A DNA stretch of 64,000 bases from Cyanophora paradoxa CCMP329 (lineage: Eukaryota; Plantae; Glaucophyta). Position numbers and translations under genes: made by a program. Of the stretch, positions 9,855-62,031 are shown one piece after another (the stretch's first letter is position 1; each line of letters starts with the position of its first letter). The notes under the pieces are model-generated. The model made no database searches. It saw only the letters and a list, made by a program, of their open reading frames with translations, and had not been told where the DNA came from. The stretch is taken from positions 62,001 to 126,000 of the forward strand of contig QPMI01000490.1 of assembly GCA_004431415.1 (NCBI GenBank), written 5' to 3'.

Positions 9855-9887
<33 letters not shown>

Positions 9888-12800: not shown

Positions 12801-15800
12801 ACGCGCGCGCACGGCTCGGTGTTCTCGACCAGGATGACGCCGACGAGCGCCGAGTGCGCCGTGTTGTTGCGGAAGACGGGCGCCTGGCCCGAGGAGGGCC
12901 CGCACTGCACGCCGGCGTACTTGAAGCCGCCGCGCTCGGAGCCGCCGACGGCGTTGCCGGCGATGACGGAGCCGGCGAGGTCGGTCGCCTCGAGGGAGAA
13001 GGCGGCCATCTTGCGGCGGTTGTCCTTGGCGGTGCGCGCCTGGTAGCGCGTCGCGATCGCGACGTTGCCGACGATGCGGGCCCGCGTCGCCGTCTCCTCC
13101 ATCACGAAGACGGGGCCGATCGAGTCGAAGGCCACGTTCTCCTCCAACACGACGCCGGCGCTGGCGCGGATGGAGAGGGCGGGCGAGTAGCCGAGGCCGA
13201 AGGCGCAGCGGCGGACGACGGCGGCGCCCTCGGCGGCGGCGCCGAGGTTGCGGAACATGACGCCGGAGCGGTCGAGGCCGTCCTGCCCGAACGACTCGAA
13301 GGCGACGGAGTCGAAGACGGCGCGCCCGACGCCGACGAGCGGGCCGCCCGAGGCGCGCGGCTCGTCGTAGCGGCCGACGAGGACGTGCGCGCCGAACTGC
13401 TCCTCGAGCACCGAGACGGGCGACGGGTCCGAGCCGCGGATGACGACGTTGCGCGTCAGGACCGCCACCTCGGCGCGCGTGTCCAAGGTCAGGACGCGCC
13501 CGTCGGCGCGGGTGATGGTCTGCAGCGTGCCGAAGTGGCGGTGGCGCAGCGGGCGGTCCAGCGTGAGCGTCTGGCGCGTCCCGTTCAGGCGCACGCCGAC
13601 GACGACGGCGCGGTCCCACTGGTTCGCGTCCCAGTCGGCGGCGGCGATCGCGATCGTGTCGTTGAGGCGCGCCAGCGGCCCGTCGACGACGACCTGCGTG
13701 GCGCCCGGCATGGCGTCCCCGTCCAGGCGCTGCGGAACGGTCTCAGATCACGGAAACACACGACAAGACAGAGATCGCTAACGCACCGTCCAGGACTTGA
13801 GGGGCGGGATGCCGTGCGCCTCGAGCCGCCCGAAGACGGCGAGGCCCTTGGTGCCGAGGTTGAGCGTGTTCGAGAGGGCCCAGTCGTTCGGGGCGAAGCG
13901 GCTCCCCGTGAGCACGATCTGGGGCACGCGCAGCGCGAGTCAGATTCGATGCGTCCAGGGGCGCGGAAGGGGCCGACCTCGGCGCGGTTGAGGAAGGGCC
14001 TGGTGGCGTTGCCGATGGTGAGGCGCCCCGTGGCGGTGACGAGCACGTTGCGCGCCACGAGCGACAGCGTCGTGTTCGAGACGGACTCGTCGAAGCGGAG
14101 CCAGCCGCGGACGGTGACGCGGTTGAGGCCCGGCGTGGCCGTGTCGAGGACCATGCGGCGCCAGGACTCGATCAGGACGTCCTCGCCGGCCCGCGGGACC
14201 GTGAAGTTGCGCTCGGGCCACGATTTCGGGTCCGACCAGCGGAACCACGTGTCGTTGCCGGGCGCCTCCGGCACCGACGGCGGCGCCGGGCAGCCAGAGT
14301 CCGGGCACATGTGGACGGGCGTCGCGAGCCACGTCGGCGAGCTGTCGTTCACGCAGCCGACGGCGAGCGTCCACGAGGACGGGCTCCGCGTGTAGTTGAA
14401 GGCGCCGGCGCCGGGGCTGCTGAGCAGCTCGGCGAGCGGCGTGCCGGCCATCTCGGTGCGGGTCGCGGCGACGCCGCGGAGGGTGCGGCGGACGTGCACG
14501 TGGTCCGGGGCCGACGTGAAGTCGAACTGGAGGTACATGGTCTCGTTCGGGTGCCAGAGCGAGGCGTGCAGGTTGAAGTCCTCGGGGTCGACGTACGCCC
14601 TTGCGAGCGGGGCGCCCGTCCCCTGGAAGTCCCACTGCAGCGAGTAGCGGCGCCCGACCTTGGCGAGGAAGACCCAGCCGAACTGGGGAGGCGCGCCGTC
14701 AACGTCAAGCAGAAGCAAAGACCGTCGAGACGCAAAGTTAAGGCGGACCTCGTTGTACTTGTCCCAGGGTACCTGCAGCGTGGCGTTCGTGCCGAGGTCG
14801 GTGACGAGAAGGAACTTAAAGTCGAGCGCGCTCGGCGCGATCCCGTTGATGTGCACGCGGCGGAAGGGCGCCCCCGTGCAGACGGCGCTGCGCCAGCCCG
14901 GCGGGTGCGAGCACTCCGGCAGCGCGAGCGTGTGCGGCGTCGGCATCTGCGGGCGCCGAAGAGTGAGGGCGCGTGTGATTACGAGGCGACGCGGAGCTGG
15001 AGCGCACCAGGATCTGGCCGCCGGGGGTGCCGGTGAGGGTGCCGTCGACGTCCGTGACGATGCCCACATCCTGCCACGCGTACCGAGCGTACCTGGAGAG
15101 AGATTGAGCGCGCTGCTCCGAGTGGATTCAGACAGCGAGAAGGCGGGCACCAGTAGACGTTCTCGAACTTGAGCTTCTCGACCCAGGTGTTGAAGCCGCC
15201 CTGGCGGGAGTGGGCCTTGGCGCCCGGCTCGAAGACGGCGTCACCCTCGCCCTCGAAGTTGACGAAGGTCACGTTGGAGATGGTGAAGCCGTAGGACTTG
15301 GGCGTCCAGACGCCGACGCGGCCCTCGCCCCGCGTCGGGTTGTACTGCGAGCTGCCCACGACGACGATGTCCTCCGCCCGCGAGATGTTCTCGAACGAGT
15401 TGCGGTGGTTGCCGCGGCCGAGCGTGCCGCCGAACGCCATGTCGATCCAGCCGTCCTCGCCCGGGTGCACGCCCGTCACCTCGAAGCCGAAGCGTTTGTT
15501 GTCGACGAGGATCATGTCACGGAAGGTGACCCACGAGACCGCCGTCGCCGTGAAGCCGTTGCGCCCGTTGGCGTACGTCGTGAAGTTGTGGAAGACGGCG
15601 GGGGCCGGCCGGTTGCGGACGAACGGGACCGTGCTGGGGTAGAACTCGGGGAAGATGCGGAAGCCGTACCGGCCCGACGAGTGCGCTGCCATCGTATCAG
15701 AGCGGGCGCGAGTCGCGCCGCGAAACTACATGCTCGCACCGGTGTTGTTACGGAACTCGCCGAGGGGCGCGCACTTGGGGCAGATCTCCGTGTTGCCGAG

Positions 15801-18800
15801 GAAGGCGCCGTCGGGGGCCCCAAGCAGCTGGTACCAAAAGCCCCAGTCCGAGCCGACCGCCACGTTGTTCGTCTGCGCAGCGGAATCAGCGCTGTCAACT
15901 GGTACGGTGACTAGCAAGCAAAAGGCGCACGATGTAGTTGGTCGGGTGCACGATCCAGAAGCCGGCGGGTTGCTGGTCCGTGTTGAGCATCGAGAACGAG
16001 GGGATGTTCGTCTGAACGCGAAAGCGTGAGTGAGAGAAACGCAGATCTAGAGCGGGTCCGCTGCGGCCGCGCACGATGATAAGGTTCTGGTCGATGACGT
16101 TCTCGCGCTCGACGCCATCCTCGAGGAAGTATGCGTGGCCCTCGATGCGGTACGCCACGTTGCGGGTGACGCGCAGGCGGTTGACGCCGTGCACCGCCAC
16201 CGCGCGGTTCCATGAGCGGTGGATGGCGCACGAGCGCACGTACGACTGCGTGGTGTCGCCCATCATGTGGAAGTGGATGGCGTAGCGGCCGAGCGTGAAG
16301 GCCTGGCCGACGTCGAAGAACTCGACGTTGTCCATCCGCGTCGTCGACGCCATGCCCATCGAGGCCATGCTGTGGATCAGCATCGTCGCGCCGAAGCGGA
16401 ACGCGAGCGTCGACTCCGGGTCGCCCCGCACGAGCACGTTGCGCGTCAGGTACGCCACCTCCGCACGCTGCGGGCGAAGCGCGTGAGAAATAGAGAGGAA
16501 AAGCTTTGAGCAGCGATTGCAAATGGCGCGCCATGTCGATGGTCTTGCCGCCGAACATGTCGATGACGCCGAGGTGGCGGTAGTTGAGGGGGCGGTCGAG
16601 GACGACCGTGCGGCGGTCCTCCGAGACGGCGACGATCGCGCGCTCCTCCGACTCGGCGTCCCCGTCGAAGGAGCTCGAGGCGACGGCGACGCGGCCGCCC
16701 ACCTCCCAGTCCACGGGCTCCTTCAGCGTGATGTTCGCGTCGCCGGGCCAGACGGTCGCCGCCAGCTGCGTCCACGGCAGCCGCGGCGTGCCGTGGAAGT
16801 CGAGGACGCCGCCGCGCTGCGCGATGACCTGCGGCGGGCAATCAGATTTCAGAGCTCGACAGAAGCCGGTTCCGAGCGCTGGGACGGCGGGGCTGACCTT
16901 GGCGCCGTACTTGGGGATCTCGTAGGAGAGCGGCGTGCCGTAGAGGGTGACGGTCGCCTTGTGCTGGTAGGGCTTGCCCTCCGTGCCGATCTGGAGGCGC
17001 GCGTGGTGCCCGCGCAGCATGATCTGCGGCAGGCGTCAGCTGCAGCTTCCGGTCTTCGCAGCGACGGCTGCTCTCTGAGCGCACCCACTCGGCGCGGAGC
17101 TCGTAGTCGCCCTGGTCGTCGAAGATGAGGGAGCCCTCGATGAGGAGGAGGCGGAGCTTGGCGGGCGAGCAGTCGAGGAGGACGGTCTGGTGCGCCAGGA
17201 TGACCACCGAGTCGCCGTCCGCCGGCGGCGCCGCGCCGCCCCAGGTCGTGCGGCGGCTCCAGAGGTCCGCGAACGCGTACGTGGCCGACGCGTCAGCGAG
17301 GCCCTTGCCGGCGACGAGCACCGCGGGGGCCATCGGCATGCCGTGGCTGGAGGCGCGCGTCACGCAGACCACCTCGGTCTCCGTCGCGCTCTGCACGTCG
17401 CAGACGGTGCCACCGGCGAGGGTCACGTTCGGCGCGGCGCCGGCGGCCGAGAGGAGGCCGGTGCCGGTGAGGGTGATGACCGTGCCTCCCGCGGTGCTGC
17501 CGCGGTTCGGCGTGACCGAGACGACGGTGGGCGTGGACGCCGCCGAGTAGGCAAACGTCACGTTGGTGAAGGTCGCGTTCACGGCGGCGGCCTCTGGGCT
17601 GTTGAAGACCGAGACGACGATCCGGCAGGCGCCGGTCGTGTTGCTAGAGACGCGTCCGGTGACGCAGACGAGCGACGTGTACGAGGACGAGGTGACGCGG
17701 CAGGGTGCGCCGCAGATGGTGACGCCCGTCGCGTTGTGGGCCGCCGGGTCGAAGCCGTTGCCGTCGATTGTCACCGACTGGCCGCCGGCGAACGAGGACG
17801 TGGCGGGGGCGATGGCGAAGACGGAGAGCGGGACGGTGAAGCGGGTCGTGGGCGCGACGGTCGCGTAGCCGCGGTCCGCGAAGAGGACCGAGACGCGCTG
17901 GCTGGGGCCCGCGCGGCCGGCGCTCAGCGTGCACGAGATGGCGACGGTGGTGGCCGCAGTGGGCGTGCACGACGAGGCGCCGACGGTCACCGCAATGTCC
18001 GAGAGGCTCCAGCTGCTATCGTTGCCGTACGTGCCGATGATGGTGATGCTGACGCCTGAGAAGCCCGATGAGGGCTTGACGCTGGTCACGGCCGGCGTGT
18101 AGTTCGCCGAGTACTGGAAGGCGGGGCCAGCGACGGAGACGCCGTTGACGGCGACCTGCACGGGCGCCGCGCCCGCCGAGCCGGAGGGCAGCGTGCACGT
18201 CAGGCTCGTGTAGGCGGCGGCAAGGACGGGGCAGGCGCGGCCGCCGACGGTCACGTCGACGGCGGACGCGTTGGGCCCGAAGCCGGTGCCGTTGATGTGC
18301 AGCACCGCCCCGCCGTTCGTCTGCGATCGCGAGGGCGTCAGGCTAACATGGACTGAAAAAGACAGTCAAAGAGGCGCACAGAGCCGGCGTTGCGGAAGGT
18401 GCCATCGAAGACGGGCAGCCCGAGCGACGTGACGGAGAGGGCGTAGCCAAAGCTGGTGGCCGGCTCGGGCTGCGCGGCGAGGCCGACGGTCTCGACGAGG
18501 ATGACGACGGGGAAGGCGCCGGCGACGCCGAGGCCGAGCGTGCATGCGATGGATTCATTGGAGGACGACTCGACCGCGCAGGGCGCAGTGCCGATGCTGA
18601 CGGAGAGCGCGCCGGTGGGGAAGAAGCCCGAGATGGTGAGCACATCGCCGTTGGCGCCCGAGGCGGGACTGACGGAGCTGATCTGCGGCGTGGTCTCCGC
18701 CGCGATGGTGACGGTGCAGGCGGTCGCGGCGTCAGAGCAAACAACGGCGGCGCCGGCGACGGACGAGATGGCGTACGCGCCGGCGGCGGCGGCGCCGACG

Positions 18801-21800
18801 GCGGGCATGGTGCAGGCAACCTCGCCGGCAGCGAGGGCGGTCATGGCGCAGGCGATTGCCGGGCCCGAGGCGGGCGTCAGCTCCACGACGGCTGCGGAGA
18901 CAGGCCCTGCGAGCTTGACGGAGCCGGCGAGGCCGAGGCGGAGCGCGAGGCCGCCGGCCAGCGACGCCGCGGCGCTGGAGAGGCCCGTGACCTCGGCGGC
19001 GTACTCAAAGGAGGCGGCGCCCGAGGCGGCGCCCGTGCCGGCGAAGACGACGGAGACGGCGGCGGGGCCCGGGAGGGACTCGCCGGCCACGCAGACGATG
19101 GAGTCATCGGCGACGCTCGTGACGGCGCAGGGTGCCGCGCCGAGCTGCACGGTCGGCGCGCCGACGGCCTGCGAGAAGTTGCCGCCGGCAATGGTGACCG
19201 TCGCTCCGATGCCGGCGGCGGGGGGCAAGACGCCCGTGATTGTCGGCGTGGCCGCTGCGCGGGGTCTAAGCGGGGGACTCGAGTAGAGAGGGCAAATGGA
19301 GGCGTACCGGGGTCGAATGTGTAGGCCGGGGCTGGGAGGGCGACGCTGACGTTGCCGAAGGCGACGGACGCGACGAGGAAGGGCTCGCTCGCGTTGGGCG
19401 CGGCGGCGGGCCGGCAGACGAAGGCGCCGGCCGCGGACGAGAGCGGGGCGCACGCGACGGAGCCGCCGGCCGCCGAGACGAGCTCGACTGAGGCGAAGGT
19501 CGCGGGGTCGACGGGGAAGCCCCGCCCCGCGAACGTGACGGCACCGCCGCCCAGGACCGAGCCGGAGGCGGGGCTCGCCGACGCGATCTCTGCTCCGGGA
19601 AGGCGCGGTCAGATTGAGAAGAATGAGAGCGGCAGGCCGGGACCGGGGCCGGCGTGCGCACCGGTGCCGACGGCGACGGAGACGGCGCCCGAGGCGCGGC
19701 CGGCGGCGGGGAGCAGGATGGAGAGGGGCAGGTCGCCGCCGTAGAGGGCCCGCGCGACGCTGCAGACGAGGGACGAGGCGGTGGCCGACGCGGCGTCGAC
19801 CGCGCAGGGCACGCCCCCGATGGCGACCTCGGCGTCGGCCGCGAGGAGCGCCCCGGTGACGGTGAAGGTGGCCACGTCGCCAAAGGGGCCGCAGGCCGCC
19901 GGCGAGATCGAGGCGACCGAGGGCGTCGCGGCGCCGTCGGCGGCGAAGGCGGCCGCCAGCGTCGCCGACTGTCCACCGACGGCGACGACGACGTCGTGGG
20001 CGCCCTCCGCGAGGGCCGGCGCCGCGCAGACGAGGCTCCCGTACGCGGAGGAGAGCACGGGGCACTCCGCGCCGCCGACGGTGACAGAGGCCGTCGCGTT
20101 GCCGAGGGGCCCCAGGCCGGCGCCCGAGACGGTCAGGCGCGCGCCGCCCAGGGTGCCGCCCGCCGCGGGCGACACCGACGTCGCGCCTGCGCAAGGTCGC
20201 GTAAGCTCGGGGAAGCAGGGTTCAGAGGAGACCGCAGTACAGGCGCACTCAGGGTAGAGTTGAACTTGGCGGAGCTCGAGGCAGCGCCGAAGCCGGCGAC
20301 GGTCACCGCGACGTCGTGCTCGCCGGCCGGCAGCGCGGGGACGGTGCACTCGAGCGAGGACGGCGAGGCGCGGGCGACGGCGGCGCAGGCGACGCCGCCG
20401 ATCGCGACGGCGGCGTCGCGCGTGTCGTTGAGGCCCTTGAAGTCACCCGAGACGGTCACGTTGTCGCCGGCGAAGCCGGCCGCCGGCGCGACCGACGCGA
20501 CCGAGGGCGTGGCCTCTGCGGCGAGAGTGAGGAGCGGTGTCCGGCAGCTGCAGGGAGAGACCGGCGCGCCCGCACCGTCCGAGAGCGTGAAGGTGCAGTC
20601 GTCCATCTTGCAGGCGGCGAGGAGGCCGTTGACGCGGACGGTGACCTGCGGGGCCGGCTCGACCGTCGAGAGGAACTCGCCGGGGATCGGCCCCAGCATG
20701 AAGCCGCCCGAGGCGCGCTCGGTCGCCGTGGCGGTGACGGCGCCCGAGGGCGCGGAGAGGCCCGAGGCGTCGACCTCGAGGAGCGGGAGGTCGCCCGGCG
20801 TGCCGTCGAAGGTCACGTCGTAGTTGAGGCCGTAGCAGGAGCCCCAGCGGAGGACCGAGGCGCGCAGGCCGACGGCGAGCAGCGCGGCGCGCACGTCGGC
20901 GGCCGGCGCGTCCCACGCGAGCGGCTCCGTCGCGTTGGCGAGGCCCGGCATGGCGAGCGTGAAGGTGCCCGAGAGGCCGGCCTCGGCGCTCTGGTTCCTG
21001 GCGGCCGACGCGGCGAGCGGGGCGGGGCCGGAGAGGGCCGAGGCGGAGATGTCGGCGGCCGGCGCGCAGGTGCGGAGGCTCACGTCGTACGCGAAGGTGG
21101 CGGGGCCGGCGGCGCGGCGGGCGACGGAGACGGACTGGACCCACTCGGGGACGTAGCCCGAGACGGAGAACTCGTCGATCCAGAAGGCGCCCGCCGGCTC
21201 GCTGACGCCGTCGCCGGCGAGGACGATGCTCTGCACGAAGCGCTGGCCCGCGCCGAAGCGCGCGTCCAGGATCCGGTCCAGGTCGATGCACGTGTAGTGC
21301 CTGGGCGCAGCGTGAGCGGGGCTGAAGCTTACGCTTAAGTGCATTGGGACGCGCGCACCACTGGTTGTCGGCGATGACGTTCCAGGAGGCGACGGGGGGG
21401 AAGCTCGAGGTCGGGTCGATCGGCATGGTCATCTCGAGGGAGCGCCAGCCCTGGCCGCTGATTTGCACTGCGACGCGGGCAGGGGCGTCACTCCACAGGA
21501 ACGAGGCGGGCTCGGAGCTCGAGGGCCGCCGGCGGCACTGACCGAGCATGTTGGCGCGCGTGGAGGCCGGGATGCGGTAGGCCATGCAGACGAGCGGGTA
21601 GAGGTTCGTGTCGTAGCCGGCGGAGGTCATCCCCGGGCGCAGGTTCATCTCCCGCTCGAAGGCGCGCACGCTGGCGCCGCCCTCGACGCGCATCGAGACC
21701 GAGCCGGCGTACGCCGTCGTGTCGTCGGCGGCGGCCGTGGCAGCGCCCGAGCGGCGCTGCCAGGCGCCGCCGGCCTCGAACGAGTCGCGGAAGAGGAGGT

Positions 21801-23924
21801 CGGGGGGCTGGAGGAGGCCGCCGTCCGTCCGGTCCATCGCGAAGACGAGCGACTCGACGGCCGCCTTCACCTCGGCCGCGGAGGCGTTGCCGGGCACGGT
21901 CGCCGTCAGCGGCCCGAGGGCCAGCTGCACGGTGCCGTTCGCCGTCCCGTTCGCGATCGTGATCGTCTGCACGTCGTTCCTGGGCGCCCCGCGCAAGTAC
22001 ACGCGCTGCGCGGCGGCGAAGAAGAGCTTAGGAGCAGAAGATACACACGGAAATCGAGGAAATCGGGGACCTGGCGCTCGTCGACGGCGTTGGCGGCCTG
22101 CGCATTCGTGTAGAGCGGCGCGCCGACCCGCACGGCGACGTCCTGGTTCGAGCCGCCGCTGCCCTGCTGCTGCAGGGAGCGCAGGAAGAGCCGCTCGCCC
22201 TTCTTGAGCGCCATCTTGGGCGACGCCTGCGCCGGGCTGGAGGCGTAGGTGCGGGGGGCCGTCCACGTGTCGACGCGGGCGGCGCGGGTGAGGTTGGCGG
22301 GGCTCGGGCCGGCCCACAGCTCGCTGGCGTCGTCCGAGGACTGGAAGAAAGTGTACACCGCGTCCATCGGGGCCGTGAAGTAGGCTCTGAGGGGGAGGAA
22401 GAAGAGGAAAGTGAGGGGCAGACTTCAAGGATGGAAGAGGGGAGATCGAGGGCCGCACTCGATGAGCTGGCCGGTGTTGACGCCCCAGTCGCGGGGGGCC
22501 TCGAAGGCGGCGGGGAGGAGGCGGGAGACGTTGGGCGAGGCGGGGAAGCGCCGGTCGGCCTTGAGCGCCGAGAGGCCGCCGCTGACGCCCGTCCAGCCCC
22601 GGAAGCGAACGCCGCGGGAGCCGGGGAAGAGCTCGCCCGCCCCCGCCACGAACGCCGCGCCGGCCCGCGTCGTGCACACCACTGCGCGCCGCGCCCGTCA
22701 GCGGGGCGCGCGGGGAGGGGGGGCGGAAGAGCGCAGTGGGGGTACCGTGGTCGTAGGTGGAGAAGGTGACGTCGCAGGGGAGGCCGCCGGCGGTGACCTC
22801 GTTGTCGGCGGGGACAGGCGAGAAGCCCGAGCCGCGCACGGTCAGCGAGAGGCCGCCCCGGACCGACGCCGCCGGCGCCGAGAGGCCCGTGATCGCGGGG
22901 TACACCTGCCGAAGGCATCAGAGCGGCGCGGCGCGCGCGAGCGGACGAGCGGCCGGGGAGCTGGAGGGCGCGCCTGGAAGGTGTAGAGGCGGGCCTGCCC
23001 ATCCATAAGGAACTCGTTGCGCGCCGGCTGCGCGTTGCCGTACTGGCGCGCGACCTGCGCCGACGCGTAAGCGGACGAGGGCCAGGGGGGGTAGGCCTAG
23101 GGGGGCCCTGGCGCTGGGCGGGCCTGGAGGGTGAGGTTGTAGGAGCCGGCGGGGGAGGGCCCGGCGGTGGCGGCGAGCTTGTCCCAGGTCGGCATCTCCG
23201 TGTAGGGCGCCCCCGAGCTCGCGTTGAAGAGCCCGAAGCGGCCCTCGCCGGCGTACAGCCCGATAATGTCGTTCACGTCGCTGGGGCAGAGGTTCTATGA
23301 GGGCCGGGCCCGGGCCCGGATCAAATTCGATCAGAAGGGCGTACCGGATGGAGAGGTTGGAGCCGCGGAGGGAGACGGGATCGCCAAAGCTGCCGGCCTG
23401 CGGCTCGATCGAGGAGAGCGCCGGCGTGTTCCCCTCCCGGTACGAGAACGCCTGCCGCCGCGTCAGCGCGAGATCGGCGCGGAACGGGAATCCGAGCGGG
23501 CGCACGCTGAAGAGGGTGGCGACGGAGGACTCCTTGCCGTCGACGATGACGGTGACCGGCACGCCCTCGGCGGGGGCGCTCGGCGCCGTCTCGCACACGA
23601 CGCGCGTGCTCGTCGTGTAGTAGGGGAGGACGCGGCAGGGCGCGCCGCCCACAATGACGCCGTTCGAGCTCGTGAAGTCGCCGTTGTACTCCGAGAAGCC
23701 GTTGCCGACGATCGTCAGGTACGTCCCGCCCGCGACGGAGCCCGCCGTGGGCGTCACGTAGCCGATCACTGCGCGGCGCGGTCAGGTCAGGCGGCCGGCC
23801 GCGGGGCGCGGGGGGCGGGCGAGCGGCGGCGCGCACTCTGGGCGGATGTGACCGCGGTCAGGGCGAGCGCCAGCAGCAGCACGAGCACCGCCGCGGCGCC
23901 CCGCGGGCGCGCTAACCGCGTCAT
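9170..23924 (-). CDS. PKHD1L1: Fibrocystin-L/PKHD1L1-like giant type I membrane protein (signal peptide, IPT/TIG repeats, PA14, two G8 domains, parallel beta-helices, TM), multi-exon
   Basis: ATG at 23924 gives signal peptide MTRLARPRGAAAVLVLLLALALTAVTSAQ. TIG repeats (VTPTAGSVAGGTYLTIVGNGF; VTPNRGSTAGGTVITLTGTG). PA14 motif YTFFQSSDDASELW. G8 domains DLWSRRTTWGGAAPPADGDSVVI (about 17270) and FRWSDPKSWP (about 14240). Beta-helix GQAFTLGRYAIHFH..SYVRSCAIHRSWNRAVAVHG. TM AAVVAGIVVGAVAAALVVGL at about 9770-9830. The symbol denotes family likeness, not proven orthology. Confidence 0.88.
9857..9886 (-). repeat. (CAG)10 trinucleotide repeat encoding poly-Gln in the juxtamembrane stalk of the PKHD1L1-like protein
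   Basis: (CTG)10 run on the + strand, in frame with PAGASGVNQAAVVAG on the - strand. Confidence 0.7.
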
Positions 23925-25492
23925 GGCTGGGGGATCCCCGCTCTCCGGGACGCCGCGACCACGCGCCGCGCTCCTCCGGGCTTCCTTGCTTCAAGTTCGA
24001 ACGCTTTCCCGGCCGATGTGGAGCTGCGCTGAGCTGGCGCTGGATGCTGGAGGCGGGGCCTAGCTCTATCTCCGGCGGCGGCTGCCGTCCGGAGGCGTAG
24101 GCGACGAGCGCAGAGGCCTAGGGAGCGCCGAGAGCCGCCACTCGGTACGAAGGCGCAGATCTGCGCGCGTGCGCGAGCATCTCGACGTCAGCCCCCGCGG
24201 CGCGAGCGCTCCTCGCGTGCGCATATCGCCCCGCACCTTCCGATTGTCACGCAGATGAGATCGAACGCGCCGATCCGCGTCCGAAGGCCGCCCGAGCGCG
24301 GCTTCCACCCAACACCACCCACCCGTGCGCGAACGAATCGCCTGAGAGCGCTGGTGCTGCTGCCGTGCGGGAAGCGACGGGCGCTGCTGCGATCGATGCC
24401 TTGGAAGAGAGCGAATGATGCCGATGCGCGCCGGATCGTAATCGACTCGGCCCGAGGCGCCTCGCTGGCGGTCTCTCCGCGCCAAGCAGGCACTCGGAAG
24501 AGCGCATGATGAACCGGCGAACAGAGGCCTGCACTCGGCGTTCCTCCCCCCCCCCCCCCCCTCGCTCGGAGGTGTGGACACGTGTTCGAAGTCGCGCGGC
24601 CAGCTAGCGCCACGGGGGTGACGACTCTCACTGACGAGACCGCGGCGCAGCGAAAGCGCATGCGCAGGCGACGGCCAAGCAGCCGGCTCTGTCGCTGATG
24701 CTATATAGCTAGCCTGCGGATGGCGCGGCGCCGGCAGCGCGGATGTGGCGCGTTGCACGCGTGTACCCCAAGAGATCTTCTTCCCCCGGAGGGGCCGAAT
24801 TGATTGATCGCGCGCAACCTTGTGCTTCTCCGCAGAGTCCGTACCCGCAGGTGACCGAAGTCACGCGCGTGCGCAAGCTGCCTGCAAGGCTGCAACCAGC
24901 GCACTGCCGCAGTGCGCCTGCAACTTCCAAGATATAGCTACTTCCAGCTTGCAGCCTGGAAGCGCCCGGAGGCGCCGGACAGCTGTGAGTTCGCGCGGCT
25001 TCCGGAGCTCTGTCGGAGGTGCGCAGCACCTCAGCGCGTGCCGAGGTCCAGCAGCAGCCAGGTGCAACTTCACGTAACCTCGCTTACAAAGCGCAAAGGA
25101 TCGCGCTCGAGCCTCGTTGGGTGCGCCGAGGCTGCATGCATATGCGCGCGAGGCGCCGCGCGCGCCGCGCATGCGCAGTTTTTTGACCCCCCACGTGCAC
25201 TGCAGCTGGTAGCTAAGGCGGTCGGAGGCTGCCGAGGAGCGCGGCTGAGCAGAGGAGGCTTGTGGCCCAATTGCAACGGGCGCTTGAAGCTTGAAGTGCT
25301 GGGTTGGCGCGCGCCGAGACTGCCGGTGCGCGTGGTGCGCCGCTGCGCGCGCCTCCCACCACGTGCGCGTGCAATCATCGGTAGCTAACAGAGCCAAAGC
25401 CCCGCAGGAGCTGCCGAGGAGGCGGCGGGTGGCCCAGCGATCGGGGGCCCGGCGGCCGTGCGCGAGGCGCTCCTGCCAGCTAGGGCGCAGCA

Positions 25493-40748: not shown

Positions 40749-43700
40749 TCAACGCGGCCCCGCCGCCTTCGCCCGCAGCCGCGTCACCTCCTGCGCAGCC
40801 CCGAGGTGCGGTCAGGGCCGACGGCCGCGGACGAGGCCGGCGCGACGCCGGCGCAGCCCCAGAGGCGAGGTCAGGGCCGAGGGCCCGGGGGGCCGGGGCC
40901 GGACGAGGCCGGCGCGACGCTGACGCTAAGGATCTGGGGGGCCGCCGCACCTCCATGAGGGCGCGGGCAGCGTCGGCCTCGCCCTGCGCCCGCATGACGA
41001 CGGAGAGGTTCTGCATCGCCGCCAGCACGTTCGGGTGCTCCGCCCCGTGCGCCCGCCTCAGCAGCCGCAGCGCCTCCTGCGAGGGGTCGAAGACGCGTGA
41101 GGAGGGGGAGGGCAGAGGGGGAGGAAAGGCGGGCGGACCTCGAGGAGGGGGCGGGCGGCGGCGGTGTCGCCCTGGGCGTGCGTCAGGTTGGCCAGGTTCA
41201 GCGTGTACGCCGCCACCGCCGCGTGCTCCGCCCCCAGCGCCGCCCTCTTCAGCCCCAGCATCTCCTGAGGGAAGGAGGAGGTCATGATCAGCCGAACGCC
41301 GGGGGAACGATCAGCGGCTGATCGCGCGCGCGCCTGGTACGCGGCGCGGGCGGCGGGGACGTCGCGCTGCTCGAGCAGCAGCGCCGCCAGTGCCTCGAGC
41401 GTCGTCGCCACGTCGGCGTGCGCCGGGCCCAGCGCCTTCTTCAGCAGCCGCAGCGCCTCCTGCGCGGGTCGCTCTCAGGTTCCAGAGGGCCCCCAAGAAG
41501 GCGAAGGCGCCGGCGCGCGCGCCTCGAGGACGGGGCGGGCGGCCGCGTAGTCCTTCTGGGCGTACAGCAGGCCCGCCAGGTTCTGCATCATCCGCCCCAC
41601 GTCGGGGTGCTCCGGCCCCAGCGCCTTCTTGAACACCCGCAGCGCCTCCTGCAAGGGCGACGGATGTCAGATAGGACTTTCGCGGAGGCGCGGGCGCGCG
41701 CGGGCGCGCGGGGCACCTCGTAGAGGGGCCGGGCGGAGGAGAGCTTTCCCTGCGCGTGCAGCAGCTGGGCGAGCCGCTGCGTCGTGTTCGCGACGTCGAG
41801 GTGGTCCGCCCCCAGCGCCTTCTTCCGCAGCCTCAGCGACTCCTGCGGAGCGGCGGGCGTCAGGCACGGGCGGCGGCCGGGTAGGCGGGCTGGCGCCGGC
41901 GGGCGCGCCTCGAGCATGGTCCGGGCCCCGGCGGCGTCGCCCTGGTCCTGCAGCAAGAGCGCCAGGTTCTGCAGCGTCGTCGCCTGCTGCGGGTGCTCCG
42001 GCCCCAGTGTCTTCTTCTGCACCCGCAGCGCCTCCTGCATGCGCGGCGTTGAAATCAAGAAAGCGAGAGGAAGGAGGAAGGCAGGGGGCCGGCACCTCGT
42101 ACAGGGGCCGCGCCGCCGCGAGCTTGCCCTGCGCCTTGAGCGCCAGGGCCAGGTTCTGCATGGTGCCCGTCACGTCCGGGTGCTCCGGCCCCATCGACTT
42201 CTTCAGCAGGCGCAGCGCTTCCTGCGCGGCGCGGAGAACGATCAACGATCTAGAGAGGGAGGGGGGCGGCGGGGGGCGCCGGCCGGACCTCGAGGAGCGG
42301 CTGCGCCGCCGCGTAGTCCCCCGCGCCGATCCGCATGCTCGCGAGGTTCTGCATCGTCTTCGCGACCTGCGGGTGCTCCGCCCCGTGCGCCTTCTTCTGC
42401 ACCCGAAGCGCCTCCTGCGCAGGCCGGTCCGAAGCCGTCAGCGGTGCGGGGCGAAGGGCAGGGAAGCAGATCTAGAGGCCCCGGTGGGGAGAGTGGCTGC
42501 GCGAGCGCGCGCTCGCCTCGAGCATGGGCCGCGCGGCGGCGGCGTCGCCCGTGGCGTAGAGCAGCAGGGCCAGGTCCTGCATGGCGGAGGCTACCTCGGG
42601 GAGCTCCGCCCCGCCCGCCTTCCTCTGCAGCCGCAGCGCCTCCTGCTCGGAAAAGGTCAGAGCTCGGAAAAGAGCGCAGAAGCGACGGGGCGGCGCGCCA
42701 CACCTCGTAGAGGGGCCGGGCGGCCGCGTAGTCGCCCTGGGCCTCGTGCAGGTTGGCCATCTTCTGCATCGCCCTCGCCACGTTCGAGTGCTCGGGCCCC
42801 AGCGCCTTCTTGTAAAGCTGCTGCGCCTCCTGCGCGGGGCGGCCGGGGCGGCCGGTCACCGACACGGACGAAGCCTAGACCTAGGGCGGGGAGGAGGAGG
42901 CGGCGGGGGCGGGCCTCGAGCAGGGGCCGCGCGGCCTTGAAGTCGCCCTGGGCCTTGAGCAGGGTGGCCAGGTTCTCCAGCGCCAGCCCGACCTCGGGGT
43001 GCCCCGGCTCCAGCGTCTTCCTCCGCACCCGCAGAGACTCCTGCCCGGCCCGCGCGCGTGGGACTCCGGCGCGGATCCGGAGAAGAAGGGGCCGGGCGCC
43101 GGGCGCCGGTCGCACCTCGTAGAGGGGGCGGGCCCCCGCGAAGTCGCCGGTCGCCATCCGCAGGTTCGCGAGGCTGAGGGCCGCCGCCGCCGCGTCCGCG
43201 TGCTCCGGCCCCCTCAACTTCGTCTGCAGCCGCAGCGCCTCCTGCGCGACCGGAAGTCAGCGGGCGCGGAGGGGCGGGTCGGCAGAGCGCGCCTGGAGGA
43301 ACGGGATGCCCTCGCCGGCGCGGCCCATCGCGTCCAGGAGGACGCCCGCCCGCCGCAGGTCCGCCGGGTCCGCCTCGTCGCTGCCCTTGTGCAGCGCCGC
43401 CGCGAGCCGCCCGGCCGCCTCCGCCGGGCGCCCGCTGGCGAGCCAGAGCCGAGCCGCCTCCGCCTCGTCCAGGTGCCGGAGGACGTCGGGCCGGCACAGG
43501 ACGTCCGCGAGGCGCTCCGCCGAGCCCGGCCCGCCCCGCGCCAGCGCCCAGGGCGCCTCCTCCGCGCGCCGCTGCGACGCCGGCCGCCGCGCGAAGAAGG
43601 CGCCCAGGCTCGCGTGCATGGCCGCCCGCTCGCCCTCCACCGGCGCCAGCGCGCCGCCGGCGCCCCGCCGGCCTCGCGGGCCAGGCCGAACTCGAGCTCG

Positions 43701-54400: not shown

Positions 54401-57400
54401 TTCAGATGCAGGCAGACGCTGATGCCGACGTTGCAATAGGTCACTTGAAGCTCGTTTCGCTGTACGTGTGGCGAGGCGGCGAGCGCTGCGGCTGGATCCC
54501 GATCGATATCCTGATGCGCGGGGCGCATGGCAGGCTTCAGGCTGCATTCCAACACATTTACAAGGAGCTCGAGGACAAGCGCTTCCCGGAAGTCGAGTCG
54601 GAAAGCTTCTCGCGGGCCAATGCAAATCGCTTCGCCATAGAAGTCCTCTGCGCCGCCGGTGCGCGCCGCCCTCGCGCTTCGAAACTCGAAGGACGGGGCG
54701 CGAGCAGCGCTGGCGCAGGCGCCTGGCGCGACCTGCCAGTGGGGACGCGGGGGGCCCGGCGTGAAGCGCGACGGATCCTGGGCTTGTGCGCGAAACAACC
54801 CGTTTGGCGGAGCTTCGTCTTGCGCCTCGTGAAGGAGGGGCTGATCCAGGCCGTGCATCCTTATATTATCGCTTGCTTCGCCATTTCCGACCGCGTAAAG
54901 GCGCGTATTTATTCTCCCTTTTTCTTTCTCTCCCGCTCCCCTCTTCTCCCGCTTTAAATTTGCCAGCGACCCGCTCCACACGCAGGAGCGCGAGTTTGCG
55001 CGTCCGGAGCTTGAAACCCTTGGGCCGTCAGCCGTTGACGGACTACTGGCCCTCTTGGAGGTACACTCAATCTCTGTTCGCCGAGGCTTTTACAGACATT
55101 TGCCCATGGCCACTAAGTATTTTGCGGACGCCCGTTCGGCGCCGCGCAGGATTTTCGCCGCCCCAGGTGTCGGCAGCGGGTGAAGGCAGTGCTGCTATCG
55201 CTTGCGAAAATTCCGGCAATCAACTTCGAGGCGCCCGCCGTCGGGGAAGCGCTTCTCGACGCCGTCACGCGGGCTGCGGGAGGGCCCCAAGCGGAGCTCC
55301 TCCCCGCTGAGGCGCTGCAGGATCCGGAGGGATCAGCCCTGGCCGTTCTTCTGCAGGTCATCCTCCGCGCAGGCATCCCCGGCGTGCGTGCCTTCGCCGC
55401 CACCGAACGCGGGAGGCAGCGGACCAAGCCCCTCCTGCCTCTGTCCATTCTCTTTCACCTGCGAGATGCGGCAAGCGGGCGCGGGCAGACCTCCAAGTGC
55501 CCCGCGGACCTCGCGGCCGCCCTTCTCGACGCGCTCTCTGTGCACGTCCCGACCCGCGTCGCTCCTCTCTTTGCCTTTGTCCCGCCCGTCATTTCCGAGC
55601 TCCACCGTCTCGCCGAACTTTCAGCCCTTGCAAACGAGCAGGGGCTGCTGCAGGACCAGCTCCCGGACGCCATCGAGCAGATGCTGCTGCAGAACCCGGA
55701 GCTACAATTGCTAGATGTGAGATATCCGCAGGTGCAGCTGTCGGGGGCGTGGGCCCTGGACCAGCTGGAGGGGGCGCTGGCCTCGCTGCACCTCGACTCG
55801 GGAGACGGGCTCGAGACGGCCCTGCGGCGCGCTGGCGTCGTCGACCTCGCCCTCCGCCTCGCGTCCGCTGCCCGCGTTCCCTGAATAGCAATGGCGCTTT
55901 TTGTTGCAGCTGCCCAACGCTACCTTGTACGCGTGCAGCTCGGAGATCGCGGCGCTCATGCGCCCCTTGGAACGCCTTCACCTCGCGGCTCCAGATTTGG
56001 ATGTCCTCTCCTGTAAGGTGAACGGCCGCGGCCTGCGCGCGCGGTCCGCCGCCACGTGCGCCGCGCCTGACAAGAGAAATCGAACAGCCGATGAGCTTCT
56101 TGTGGCGCTCGATTGTCGCGGGGGCGTCGGTGGCGGCGGCGGCGGGGCTCTTCGCGGCCGTCGATTTCGCTAAGCCCCTGAAGCCCTTCAAGTGCGGTCC
56201 CTATAGCTATCCGCTGTATAACTGCGCTCCCGTCCGCTTTGTTGCGTTTTACATTTATAATTATACGCACACGTGTACGTATACGCGGCGCAGTCGGCTG
56301 CTCTTGGATTTCGTGCGGGAGCCGGCGCGCAACAAATTCTCGGCGACAATTGCGCGCCTGCCAGGCCTGTTCGACATTCATCTCCGGCGGGAGGCGTGCA
56401 ACAACCCCGATGCGGTACTGTCCCGCACCCGCGAACCCTTTTTAACTTCCCGCCATGGCCAGGCGATCGTGAGCGAACATGTGGAAGAGTCGCGGGTCCC
56501 ATACGGCGACACAGACCCGTTCCTCTTCCTCAATGTCTCCCGGGGTTCTCTGATCAGTTCGAGGCGAGTTCATTCATATGCCGCACGCGGCCGCCCGCGA
56601 AGTATATATGTACTAATTGTGCCGCCTCATCGATTTTCGCGGCGCGGCCGTCTGCGCAGCTTCGGGAACAAAGACCTTGAGGCGGCGCTCCTCGCGATCG
56701 GGGGGCCCAACCCCCAGGCCGACCCCGCTCTCCCGACGCCCGCACTTTCCGCCGCTCCGTCATCGATCTGATGGTTCGAAGGGCCGGCCTCTCTAGCTCG
56801 ACGGACCGGGCCCGGGCCGGGGCTGTAGCTGTAGCTGCAGGTGACGCGGGGCTGCACAGGTGGCATTCGAAGGAGAACCTGCGGTCGGCGACGGGTTGAA
56901 GCGGGAGTACCTGACAAAGCTGGCGCATGAGTTTTTGGACCCTAACACGGCCCTATTCTGCCGTCTCGGCGACGCTGGCGGCGTCTACTATCCCTCCACG
57001 GACGCGCGCGTTCATGATTTCAGCGATCAGCCCGGCCACCACACGCCCCTTCCCCGTCCCGGCCGCCTCGAGTCTGAGCCAACATTTTCGCACTTGGCTG
57101 TCTAAACTCTGATCGGGAGTGCCGCGCAGCATGTTTCGCCTCTGTGGGTGGGCGATGGGCGCCGCTTTCGCGACCGGCGCAGTCTCCCCCGTCTACGTTC
57201 GTTCTGCCCCGTCCGGCCCCGCTGAATGCAGTCCCGCCCGCCCCGCCAACCATTTTGCGCATGCTGCAGTTCCCGCAGTGCCTTTATCGGTACCTTCTAG
57301 ATCTGCCGCGGGCGCGGTCGCAGACGGGCCTTAAGGACCTCGCATCCATCGAGCCGAGCGTCGCGAAGAGCTTCAAGGAAATGCTGGGGCGGGGCCTGGC

Positions 57401-57861
57401 GGAGCTGGGGCTCGAGCATCTCGTTTTTATGGTCGAAGAAGACTTCTTCGGAGAGCGCCGCACCGTTCCGCTGCGCCCCGGCGGCGAGCAAGAGCCCGTC
57501 ACCGACGCCAACAAGGCCCGCGCGCGCCCTCCGTCCCCAAATTCCACAATCGGGCGCCCCGGGGGCCCTCACGTGCCACGTACGCGTGCACAATCGTAGA
57601 AAGAGTACGTTCGACTGGCAGCGGACTACTACATTGTTGGGCGCGTCCGCCAGGAGGCTCGCCCACTGCCCGCCATGCCCCGCCCCCCCGCCGCTCGCGC
57701 TGTTCCTCGAATCATTTCCGCAGCTGGATGCGCTGCGGGAGGGGCTGCGGCTGGTGCTGCCCGCAGCTGCGTCGCGGATGTTGAGTTCAACCGAGCTGCG
57801 CATGATCGTCGAGGGGCTCCACACAATCGACGTGGAAGACTGGCGACGCAACACTCGCTAC
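51467..57861 (+). pseudogene. HECT-type E3 ubiquitin ligase gene, interrupted within the HECT domain by the AT-rich element
   Basis: HECT N-lobe VAFEGEPAVGDGLKREYLTKLAHEFLDPNTALF..YYP, VPLRPGGEQEPVTDANK|KEYVRL, LSSTELRMIVEGLHTIDVEDWRRNTRY. A stop (TAG 57868-57870) then falls inside the foreign DNA. The C-lobe with the catalytic Cys is absent from the window. Confidence 0.85.
52401..55570 (+). repeat. Intragenic tandem duplication (about 52401-53760 vs about 54265-55570) in the HECT gene N-terminal region
   Basis: LLYACSEGDLFAALALALFGAKW vs LLHACATGSLFAALALALFGARW. NANRFALDVLYAAG vs NANRFAIEVLCAAG. EAPAVGEALLGAVTRAAGGPQAEL..ILRAGIPGVRAFAATER..SKCPAD occurs in both copies, with matching intron positions. 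Confidence 0.88.
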
Positions 57862-58146
57862 CACACATAGTAAAATGCGGAGTTTTAACCCTCGGCTTAT
57901 CTTAATTGATTTTGTTGATATATCTCGTATATTCTATTTCAATCAATCGTTAATCTGTGTATATCTTATCGAATATTCATTTATTTCGATTATTTTGTAT
58001 TCTTTTCGATATTTTATCGTAAATTTCTCTTATTTTCCGATTAGTCTTACTGAGTGAATCGATAATCTGTATATGTTTCCGAATAATATAACTGAATCTC
58101 AATTAGATCTTGCCTCTGGTTAAAACTCCGCATTTTACTATGTGTG
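57862..58146. repeat. 285-bp terminal palindromic unit with perfect 29-bp inverted arms
   Basis: CACACATAGTAAAATGCGGAGTTTTAACC (57862-57890) and its exact reverse complement (58118-58146). The interior is degenerately symmetric. Confidence 0.95.
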
Positions 58147-58397
58147 ATTGGTCTAAAAGTTAATTGATTTAATCGATATTATATTCATGTACTTTCTCGA
58201 TTAAATTTAATTAAATTTAATTCATTTAATCGGAAACATATCGCTAAACTCGATTAAGATCCATAAATGATTCATTTGTTTATATTAACAAATCGATCTC
58301 TTATTGAATCCAATCGTAATTATACATGAAACTTATATGTTTTTATCATGTTTTAATGATTCTAAGGGGGGACCCTTAGGATTTTTGAAATAATTGG

Positions 58398-58488
58398 GTG
58401 TGACAGGTGTGACAGGTCCATCCAAGGAAAGTCCTAGTGAGAAATTGATTTTTAAAATCCACGGATAGACCTGTCACACCTGTCACAC
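58398..58488. repeat. 21-bp perfect inverted repeat built from tandem GTGTGACAG 9-mers
   Basis: GTGTGACAGGTGTGACAGGTC (58398-58418) and GACCTGTCACACCTGTCACAC (58468-58488). Extends to 26 bp with one mismatch. Confidence 0.95.
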
Positions 58489-58525: not shown

Positions 58526-58835
58526 TCTCAGTGTTAGTTGGTGTAGTTGATTCAAATGTGATCTTAGGAATGTGATTTAAAATCTTTCAGGCAGCATTTA
58601 TTTGTCAGGCATTAAATCCATCGATTTTGACAAAGTATTTTATTTTGGCAAAGTCATTGTTTGGATCAACAATGAAATTTGAATTATAGAAAAGTTTTCT
58701 AAAAAGGTGCCTGACAATGCCTGACATACTATATAAGTGCCTGACAACTATATTATAGTGCCTGACAAACCATATATGGTAATACTATATGATATCTTCT
58801 ACTTTCTCAGTGTTAGTTGGTGTAGTTGATTCAAA
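58526..58835. repeat. 31-bp direct repeat pair enclosing a TGCCTGACA iteron-like cluster
   Basis: TCTCAGTGTTAGTTGGTGTAGTTGATTCAAA at 58526-58556 and 58805-58835. TGCCTGACA at 58708, 58718, 58738 and 58759, with an inverted copy at 58603-58611. Confidence 0.92.
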
Positions 58836-59258: not shown

Positions 59259-59656
59259 TCAAAACGGGAATCTATCATGTTTATGTCTCTCAGTCTTCTC
59301 AAATGTTAAGAAATTCATTGTTTTATCGATCTCATCTGCTACTGATTGTGTTTTATGCTGAGCTTCTTTACCACAACTGAATATATCAATTGCTAACATG
59401 CCTTCATTGGAATAACAATGAGCTGTGCAATGGCTTTCATCTAATAGCAGAACCAATGCAAAACCAGGAGGTGATAGTTTGCCATCAATATCTCACAATG
59501 CTTATGAACAATCCTAATACCTTGTCTCAATACTGCTTGTTCAAGGGTTCCCATAATCCAATTACCTAGGAAGCTAACATGCTCATATCCTGTTGCTATA
59601 GCTGATTTAGCTTTGTAATCAAGCATAACATGAAAGCCTCTGTATTGAGTCTCCAT
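59259..59656 (-). CDS. speD: Prokaryote-type (short, pyruvoyl-dependent) S-adenosylmethionine decarboxylase proenzyme; one apparent 1-nt deletion at about 59487
   Basis: Joined ORFs give METQYRGFHVMLDY..IVHKHCEI(F)DGKLSPPGFALVLLLDESHCTAHCYSNEGMLAIDIFSCG. This has the ESH self-cleavage motif and the DIFSCG motif. About 132 aa. Confidence 0.85.
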
Positions 59657-59685
59657 TAAGAATACCTTAGAAAAATTAATTAAAC

Positions 59686-59958
59686 CTAATCGAACCTAAT
59701 GCAAATATCCCTATACTCTACTCTAATTGATGAAGTAGCCCTTTTCCTATAAGCCTGAGAGTGCTTTTTGTTGCATTCCCTACACCCTGATCCCTTCACA
59801 TGATTAAAGGGATAGGTAAGGATCACCTTATTACACTGCAAACATCTAACAGATACTTTCTCTTGAGCTTTGATGTAATGTGTCTCACTGTAATCGAATT
59901 TATCTTTACCATGAACTGTCATAGCAGCATCAATAAACTTTTTTGTTTTACTATCCAT
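59686..59958 (-). CDS. Small Zn-ribbon protein (DUF723-like domain typical of viral homing-endonuclease-associated proteins)
   Basis: FIDAAMTVHGKDKFDYSETHYIKAQEKVSVRCLQC..PFNHVKGSGCREC. Confidence 0.7.
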   Translation of the reverse strand: MDSKTKKFIDAAMTVHGKDKFDYSETHYIKAQEKVSVRCLQCNKVILTYPFNHVKGSGCRECNKKHSQAYRKRATSSIRVEYRDICIRFD

Positions 59959-59980
59959 ACTCTATATATAACCAATATTC

Positions 59981-60810
59981 TTATGGAGCAGTATCCTGCC
60001 CAAAAATGGGGAAATATCGATTTGTGCCATAGTATTCAGCATAGGTATTCTGCCTTGCAATAAAATCGGTTCTCTCAGCATATAATACACACTTGTAGAT
60101 ACCAAACTTGGTGGCTCTCACCAGAAACTGATAGTCTTCCAAACCGAAATTGACTCCATGATAAGCAATACCAAAATTATCATATGGGGTGATCACAACT
60201 GCAAAATTAGGAGTTCCACCCTCCACTTGACATACAGCATATACATCTGGTGGAATATCCACAACAACCTTGTAGTGGTCACCAATCTCAACAAGAGAAT
60301 CTACTACTGCTGTCTGTTCATTTACTACAATGGGGAATATTTTGATTATATAGGGGCATTCATGCTGGGGACATAGGTTCGAATTCTTGTATTGGGATCA
60401 ATGGGATTGGGTTGATCATTCACAAATAAAGGCGCTCCAACAGCCCACCAACCCTAAGACCATCACCAATATAAGCTCCCCCGATTTGCAGTTAATAGCT
60501 CCCGACCTAGATTCAAAAGAATAAGTAGAAAGAGGATCTCCATAGCTATCTGGGTCTCCATAATGAGCAGAAAAGTTTGCATTGGTAACAAGTAGCTTAG
60601 TTGTCTTAACTATTCCATTATTTTTATCACATCTGAGTTCCTGTAATCTCAGTTTATGGGTGGAACCAAAGGTGTTCATTGTAGGTTGGACCTCTGTTGA
60701 TTGGAGACCCTCTACATCATCAAAAGTAGCATGCTGCAGAACATGGTTTGCTGGTGCAGCTAATGATAGCTGAGGTGTAATAATTCGTTCAAGTGGGGTT
60801 GCTCAGCCAT
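59981..60810 (-). CDS. Fibre/spike-like protein paralogue 2 (four apparent 1-nt deletions in homopolymers)
   Basis: Adding one base at 60795-98, 60478-82, 60444-46 and 60353-56 yields one ORF: MAEQPPLERIITPQLSLAAPANHVLQH..LRLQELRCDKNNGIVKTTKLLVTNANF..SGGAYIGDGLRVGG..DIPPDVYAVC. It is colinear with paralogue 1. Confidence 0.65.
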
Positions 60811-60832
60811 TTTACATTAAAGGATATATCTT

Positions 60833-61686
60833 TTATGGGGTTGGGTCATCAATTACATCTAATTCTTGGTAAAATCCTGTTGTGAATATATCAGCAACAT
60901 TTACCCCACGAAGTGCTGATACAGCTGCTATATCTGTTCTCAGTCCCATAATCATAGTATTGTATACTCCAACCTCAGTGACAAACAGATCATAGGTAAA
61001 TGTCAAATTGTTATAAACACAATATCCTCTGCCAAAATGGTTCGAAGCTTGAACAAAGAATAAGTAGTTGTGTCCTGGTTGATTATTATTGGCTCTACAC
61101 ATGGAAAGCATTGCAGTGGGAAGAGGAATATTTCTTCTTACTCGATCAGTTCCTGTAATGGAAACTAATTCCGAATTCTCAAGAGTTACAGAGGATGCAA
61201 CATAGAAATGCAAAAAAGGTTGCTGTGCAACAGGTGTGTAGAAACGAATTCGTTGTGGGTTCTCCACATTTTGTTCGAGAGTATCTGGACATCATTGTAG
61301 GAAACAGATGAAGATAGCTGACCTGAAACTCTGCAGCCACCACCAATAAATGCTCCTCCTGATCTCACAGTTACAGCAGCAGTGTTTTTATCATAATCAA
61401 GGGCTTTCAGATCAACACTGTAAGCATCAGGACCTCCATTAGTAGGCTGAAAGAAGTTAGCATTTGTGACAAGAAGTCGAGTTGTTTTAACCACACCAGA
61501 ATTCTTATCAGCTCTCAGCTCTTTAACTCGAATAATCGAATTTTTATCAAAGGAGTTACCATTGGAATTGGGTCTCTCTGTGGATTCTAAACCACGAACC
61601 TCATCATTAACTTCATGCTGGCGAAAGTGCATTGCAGGGGATCCAAGGGAATATATTGGAAGTTGAACTCGATTATATTCACCCAT
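60833..61686 (-). CDS. Fibre/spike-like protein paralogue 1 (one apparent 1-nt deletion at about 61287)
   Basis: ORFs 61186-61686 and 60833-61267 join as NDV(P)DTLEQNVENPQRIRFY. Contains IRVKELRADKNSGVVKTTRLLVTNANF and TAAVTVRSGGAFIGGGCRVSG. Confidence 0.68.
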
Positions 61687-61725
61687 TGCTTCTTTTACTA
61701 AGAAGGAAAGAAAAATAAACTACCA

Positions 61726-62031
61726 TCAAGCCAAAGTGATTAAATTCGATCCAAGGGATTGGTAAACAGTTGAAAGAACTTGCAGGTTGGACGTCATTGC
61801 TTTAATGTTGTTATCACACTCATTGTATTTAGCAACAGGGTCACCATATGCAGATTTGGCAAGGACATTAACCAAGAGGTTTTTATACTCATTGACAACT
61901 GGTGAGAGCTTATTGGTTTGCTGAATCGTTTTTTCAACTGTTTGTAATGCGTTTACAAGGGTGATTGTATCGAAAGAAAGCGCAACAGGCTCAGTAGAAT
62001 AGGTGGTTCCACCAAGTGGATAGGTTGCCAT
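61726..62031 (-). CDS. 101-aa hypothetical, largely helical viral protein
   Basis: Intact ORF whose ATG directly follows the TAATAA stops of the fibre gene. Amphipathic or coiled-coil pattern. Confidence 0.65.
   Translation of the reverse strand: MATYPLGGTTYSTEPVALSFDTITLVNALQTVEKTIQQTNKLSPVVNEYKNLLVNVLAKSAYGDPVAKYNECDNNIKAMTSNLQVLSTVYQSLGSNLITLA

Follow-up and report, generated by a model that had tools for sequence, protein, structure and literature searches.

A 285-bp unit with perfect inverted arms at the probable end of a multicopy virus-like element that interrupts a eukaryotic HECT ligase gene

The 285-bp unit at positions 57862-58146 of the window, the 64,000-nucleotide stretch of DNA analysed here, is the start of a larger AT-rich insertion, which interrupts a HECT ligase gene of the host and extends beyond the window. 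Very probably the unit forms one end of a virus-like element present in many copies, and that element is probably a Polinton-like virus (PLV) or a virophage. On the more specific reading, in which the unit is both outer tip and replication-origin end of such a virus and its arms act as a fold-back primer, our judgement is evenly balanced.

The DNA to the left of 57862 is GC-rich, intron-rich eukaryotic host DNA, probably of a single-celled eukaryote. At the junction the GC content drops sharply from 60-65% to about 25-35%, and it stays at 30-40% up to the window end. A low-GC multicopy insertion with a sharp boundary is found in eukaryotic DNA. The host gene is interrupted within its HECT domain: positions 74-140 and 159-206 of the 306 in PF00632 were matched, the latter in the last host exon (E 1.7e-8), and the domain stops at profile position 206, which is the junction, with its last third missing from the window. 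Read by eye, two or more of the introns in this gene seem to begin with GC and not GT. The same junction was recovered in three DNA runs (7530-nt contig ending at 57889). Run X15, one of the runs X15-X20 whose RNA nature is only guessed, gave two other flanks at the outer arm, at 57860 and 57863.

A sequence-only reading of this DNA had described CAC ends and flanks that are not duplicated. Direct comparison confirmed the second point: the flanks of the unit, GCTAC and ATTGG, differ, and there is no duplication around the 285 bp. This is uninformative, because the partner flank is expected at the far element end, outside the window; given a larger insertion that starts at the unit, a missing duplication around it is what would be expected. 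The first point stood in part. CAC is present in this copy, but in one other junction contig, from X15, the first C is replaced by G; this C is thus kept in 2 of 3 junctions. AC lies directly before CACACATAG in 2 of the 3 (the window and one X15 contig), the third being without CC. Because of this G, and because TAC-CAC at the junction is also readable as Tyr-His, as in HUWE1, the true element end may be 57863 rather than 57862.

At the extreme end of the element, beside the host junction, an inverted repeat of at least 20 bp is present in the form of two perfect 29-bp arms that start CACACATAGTAAAA (Table 1), as had been claimed. At up to 3 mismatches the arm has 2 matches in the whole window, and none of 100 shuffles gave one. 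The pairing of the arms reaches 48 bp at 81% identity when a 19-bp degenerate extension is included, the outer 19 bp on each side of the loop pairing weakly; the arms are 227 bp apart, or 189 bp with the extension counted. Searches of viral contigs gave 0 matches to the 29-bp arm, and no relatives of the terminus in other organisms were found in viral and metagenome contigs. The single metagenome contig with a 21-nt arm match had no second arm, and a gapped two-arm pattern returned 3 loci with arms of only 9-10 bp and ordinary GC content; both were judged to be chance.

Table 1. Positions of the junction, the terminal repeats and the genes discussed in the text.
Feature	Position	Strand	Details
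HECT E3 ligase exons, cut at ...DWRRNTRY	57297..57861	+	PF00632; HUWE1/NEDD4 matches
Outer arm, element end (first base may be host)	57862..57890	+	29 bp; X15 flanks; GC step
227-bp loop, T-rich + strand, nine CG-cored motifs	57891..58117	.	
Inner arm, perfect inverted copy of outer arm	58118..58146	-	
Continuation of CG-motif array past inner arm, 7 more CG	58147..58320	.	CG count and repeat families
Tandem pair of GTGTGACAG 9-mers and, facing it, two inverted copies; candidate primase-helicase origin iterons	58398..58488	.	
31-bp perfect direct repeat around TGCCTGACA array	58526..58835	+	copies 58526-58556, 58805-58835
S-adenosylmethionine decarboxylase gene, two frames in this copy	59262..59695	-	PF02675 E 6.5e-10, phrog_3125
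Small ORF like zinc-ribbon part of phage HNH-type endonucleases	59689..59961	-	phrog_681, phrog_559, E about 1e-8
Orphan ORFs	59984..62031	-	no relatives found
Fibre-like protein, C-terminal S74 chaperone, two copies of giant-virus-contig domain	62038..63702	-	PF13884 E 6.7e-17

We assessed the interior of the unit by folding, pairing and motif spacing, since it had been read as part of a self-contained fold-back with T-rich and symmetric halves. Both halves are T-rich (58 T and 27 A, and 49 T and 31 A, of 113 bases each), but the fold-back did not hold for the interior. Compared to shuffled controls, the whole unit folds at a z of about -9 on either strand because the arms supply it, whereas the 227-nt interior alone gave z values of -0.15 (plus strand) and -1.23 (minus strand), and the 189-nt core alone +0.43 and +0.30 (150 shuffles each). 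Pairing in hairpin register was at background, 17-41% over 25 registers and 30% at the central one. A hairpin-paired interior was rejected on these grounds, and mirror (non-complement) symmetry was also rejected (z 1.0).

All four of the mirrored CG pairs that had been reported are in place, and their symmetry is a by-product of regular CG spacing. The ten interior CG have a gap CV of 0.26 versus 0.77, a regularity reached in 1 of 5000 shuffles; four mirrored pairs arise in 48 of 5000 shuffles, and when the mirror centre is slid by 20 bp there are again four. Compared as reverse complements, mirrored partners agree at 6-8 of their 16 flanking bases (mean over all interior pairs, 6.1), and CG partners about 112 bp apart match in direct register at 9-12 of 16. 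The direct alignment of the two halves (z 3.9; 0 of 2000 shuffles) scored above the gapped alignment of the left half with the reverse complement of the right (z 2.9; 13 of 2000 shuffles), which spans the 19-bp degenerate arm extension and leans towards the earlier fold-back reading.

Nine CG-cored motifs of the type W(A/T)TCG(A/T)W, with gaps of 22, 22, 17, 20, 11, 20, 22 and 20 bp, follow one another in the same direction from 57926 to 58080, 11-22 bp apart with a period of about 20 bp. CG is in excess in the loop (10 observed, 4.0 expected) and beyond the inner arm at 58147-58320 (7 observed, 2.3 expected), and depleted in the genes of the element (79 observed versus 175). The motifs of the interior make up an array in a single direction, which runs on to about 58315. 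Similar sequence does continue past the right arm, as claimed, with a 27-nt, 78% inverted match between 58215-58241 and 58071-58097. The motif array, the low GC content and the read depth all run on past 58146, which argues against a self-contained unit.

The stretch was found, whole or in part, in 20 public runs of one organism, and at least half of it in 14; one of these runs may be where the window comes from. In three DNA runs with host DNA depths of 66.7, 20.2 and 28.9, we counted 640, 619 and 1555 contigs matching 4.5 kb at 85-100% likeness, almost all of them on the AT-rich part. The summed depth at nine tabulated positions was 28-312 times that of the host, a rough measure and not a copy number. 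The element is present in many copies. Depth inside the unit (57980) relative to just outside it (58160) was 1.15, 0.98 and 1.28 in the three DNA runs, and a run X15 contig of another copy, about 97% alike, covers 57863-58339 in the order and orientation of the window. These ratios and this second copy support the earlier proposal that a mobile virus-like element ends here. The unit does not exceed the adjoining DNA in abundance, as far as summed contig depth, a rough measure, can tell; a solo MITE was therefore rejected, the other copy continuing past the inner arm and there being no target-site duplication (TSD). None of 9 listed joints changes strand, in 31-mer contigs that hardly resolve a 29-bp repeat, and inversion of the loop was not seen in very limited data (one bridging contig).

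About 250 bp inward of the unit, at 58398-58488, short iterons are present in facing orientation, in a block with 31-bp arms and a 29-bp spacer. Like the arms, the block has TCACACATA at its end, and there is a 9-nt match between it and the inner arm extended by one base. Its hairpin gave 3 Rfam matches, all far below the gathering score. A second phased array, of TGCCTGACA with a period of 20-21 bp, lies at 58709-58777 in the non-coding end of the element.

We searched viral contigs with a 19-mer of the GTGTGACAG repeats and obtained 22 contigs, versus 1 for a reversed control. In 13 of the 22 the 19-mer lies inside a gene for a primase, helicase or initiator, or no more than 375 nt from the 3' end of such a gene, a placement seen in 11 of 15 distinct contexts (L021, L027 and L036 being taken as copies of L018, judged from their flanks); 12 of these 13 carry an inverted copy within 300 nt. 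Two further contigs have it 2.1-2.3 kb from a primase-polymerase gene, and in the other 7 it falls within unrelated coding repeats. Gene contexts rest on 20 neighbouring proteins scanned with Pfam and 13 with PHROGs. Since these contexts are all of bacteriophage type and none is eukaryotic, an iteron role in the element is something that we infer. Tandem GTGTGACAG occurs near genes of the Toprim, Prim-Pol, PriCT-2, AAA_25, D5_N and VapE-like families (loci L015-L036), and looks like a widespread origin iteron across unrelated gene families. A scan of prokaryote genomes with an 18-mer gave at least 121 matches, and one text search found no paper containing the 17-mer TGTGACAGGTGTGACAG. The single match of the reversed control (L037, 2990-3030) also consists of 9-mers in tandem, with related motifs close by, and is possibly another origin-type repeat.

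Inward of these repeats, the part of the element in view encodes the genes listed in Table 1. In other copies, one-base length differences fall near the frame breaks of this copy, including one near 59486 in the S-adenosylmethionine decarboxylase region and others in the orphan ORF chain; because several lie so close by, the frame breaks may be assembly errors or peculiar to this copy. Within the orphan ORFs, 61324-61686 and 60464-60790 are paralogous domains, 42% identical, and for 60836-61291 folding from the single sequence gave no usable model (pLDDT 34). Our searches, some of which covered longer proteins only, found no homologues of the orphan, S-adenosylmethionine decarboxylase and HNH-like ORFs, and a text search found no paper linking the decarboxylase with Polinton-like viruses. 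Relatives of the fibre domain were found at 10 viral loci, 5 of them labelled giant-virus MAGs, with no match in the phage collection; the neighbours scanned at one of these loci include XRN1, SWIB and RNase III genes. The fibre and S-adenosylmethionine decarboxylase genes would also fit a giant-virus insertion. The 6.1 kb of element within the window contains no capsid, packaging ATPase, polymerase, helicase, integrase or transposase gene, so the class of the element is something we can only infer.

The closest comparison comes from Halocafeteria seosinensis, where a 2026 preprint describes terminal palindromes in endogenous virophages (subtypes 1, 2, 5 and 6) as well as in PLV subtype 4; they lie beside TSDs, accompany non-pPolB replication genes and have been put forward as fold-back primers of replication (bioRxiv 10.64898/2026.07.28.741278). 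This preprint was the only one found in our literature search on PLV and virophage terminal palindromes, and in its text the copying of ends in PLVs and virophages without pPolB is an open question. The present terminus resembles those palindromes in being an inverted repeat that occupies the extreme tip of a low-GC endogenous element, adjacent to the junction with the host. As described there, however, the Halocafeteria palindromes are tight (52 nt in subtype 5; screen gap of at most 10), whereas here the arms stand 227 bp apart with a phased motif array as the loop, a spacing that such a screen would miss, and no TSD, TIR or capsid gene is in view. Because of this 10-nt gap limit, we regard the wide-loop terminus as a variant, not a tested member, of that group.

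Other systems share parts of the arrangement. In the entomopoxvirus-associated PLVs, end modules with inverted repeats, similar to this end, are proposed to be a primase-helicase origin and a tyrosine recombinase substrate (PMC11296320); according to that account helicase and recombinase genes adjoin the repeats, whereas here the neighbours are S-adenosylmethionine decarboxylase, HNH-like ORF and fibre genes. The origins of SaPIs are described as facing iterons just downstream of a helicase-initiator gene (PMC9371898). Short facing iterons are also found here, and phage loci L015-L035 share the GTGTGACAG tandem, but the SaPI and phage origins are bacterial and lie beside the gene, whereas the candidate origin here belongs to a eukaryotic element and is placed in its non-coding terminal part, with the gene expected beyond the window. 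For Gezel-14T, TIRs made of repeated units and no hairpin are described (10.1101/2022.07.28.501842).

In our preferred reading, the terminal 900 bp would form an origin module for a primase-helicase. The GTGTGACAG 9-mers would be loading sites for such an enzyme, encoded in the part of the element beyond the window, and the CG motifs, spaced at about two turns of the helix, would be binding sites in DNA that melts easily. The last 29 nt at the 3' end of the minus strand are complementary to the inner arm of that same strand. When single-stranded, this 3' end could fold onto the inner arm as a stem of 29-48 bp with a loop of about 200 nt; stem formation in this end is a prediction from its sequence. 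The folded end would place a 3'-OH opposite 58146 with the template running on into the element, and an end of this geometry could be self-priming or self-repairing, with no need of a terminal protein. One arm would then be copied from the other, which would account for their identity. Parvoviruses use the same self-priming end geometry. Integration would be carried out by an integrase encoded in the part beyond the window, and any TSD would be completed at the far end. Simple hairpin transfer, however, predicts two loop orientations, and only that of the window was seen, in the one bridging contig; since 31-mer contigs hardly resolve a 29-bp repeat, this objection is weak.

The full combination, an integrating eukaryotic DNA virus with a linear genome copied by a phage-type primase-helicase that loads at GTGTGACAG, a parvovirus-like fold-back over a 227-nt loop and flip/flop ends, we consider unlikely. 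If true, it would be a distinct solution to end replication, missed by screens for tight palindromes and present in tens to hundreds of copies. Under fold-back, the asymmetric 227-bp loop would record each hairpin transfer as an inversion, and loop orientations across many copies in long reads can confirm or exclude the model. The link to the 9-mers predicts which replication gene the element carries.

Several other explanations were weighed against the fold-back origin end. The arms might be only double-stranded sites bound by an integrase or a tyrosine recombinase, in an att-like left end that contains an inverted repeat and makes no single-strand fold-back, which we hold to be somewhat unlikely. 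The single loop orientation seen would fit such sites, as would the AC before CACACATAG in 2 of the 3 junctions, which a short crossover core would give, but the third junction is without CC and the number of junctions, three, is too small. The 227-bp spacer far exceeds the length of a recombinase core site, which counts against this explanation. In the literature, integration at a CC core is described for Ectocarpus viruses (PMC13236599), and one source describes the TSD behaviour of rve and tyrosine integrases, with tyrosine-recombinase PLVs that lack TSDs (PMC12220804), again in keeping with duplex sites. The unit could instead be the end of a CMC/Transib DNA transposon that carries a virus, as in Teratorn, its CG motifs being subterminal transposase-binding repeats. 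This is improbable in our view: the terminal CAC of this copy and the phasing of the subterminal motifs agree with it, but the first C is not invariant and the CAC can be a host His codon, no transposase is found in the 6.1 kb in view, and the origin-like 9-mers point to replication. We know of no inverted inner copy of a whole TIR in CMC/Transib elements. Transib TIRs are described as beginning with a CACAATG-like heptamer (bioRxiv 10.64898/2026.08.26.747230), which favours a transposon end insofar as this copy also starts with CAC.

An opened, incompletely paired giant-virus hairpin telomere of poxvirus or asfarvirus type, fixed at integration, had been put forward by the sequence-only reading and is very improbable. 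The AT-rich terminal inverted structure is reminiscent of poxvirus flip/flop telomeres, and the perfect arms, a fibre domain shared with giant viruses and the reverse-complement alignment (z 2.9) speak in its favour. Vaccinia hairpins, however, are described as paired stems with few loops and mismatches (PMC8956199), whereas the interior here is unpaired, its pairing being at background and its folding like that of shuffles; the telomere is therefore not supported. Tens to hundreds of copies would, in addition, suit a small element better. Finally, a MITE at the junction or an invertible segment, in either case unrelated to replication, would match the unit in size and terminal inverted arms. 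It is the most improbable of these explanations, because the depth over the unit does not exceed that of adjacent DNA, the motif array crosses the inner arm, the other copy continues in the same way, the unit has no TSD, and the window's 57.8 kb of host DNA contains no second copy.

Two other host loci were observed in the window. At 9800-24000, on the minus strand, one or more large host genes encode many IPT/TIG domains together with G8 domains and a CEMIP beta-helix, an architecture that we take to resemble fibrocystin-L/PKHD1L1. Twelve diverged repeats at 40941-43250, each about 145 nt long and spaced at about 190 bp, are probably repeated exons of a repeat protein.
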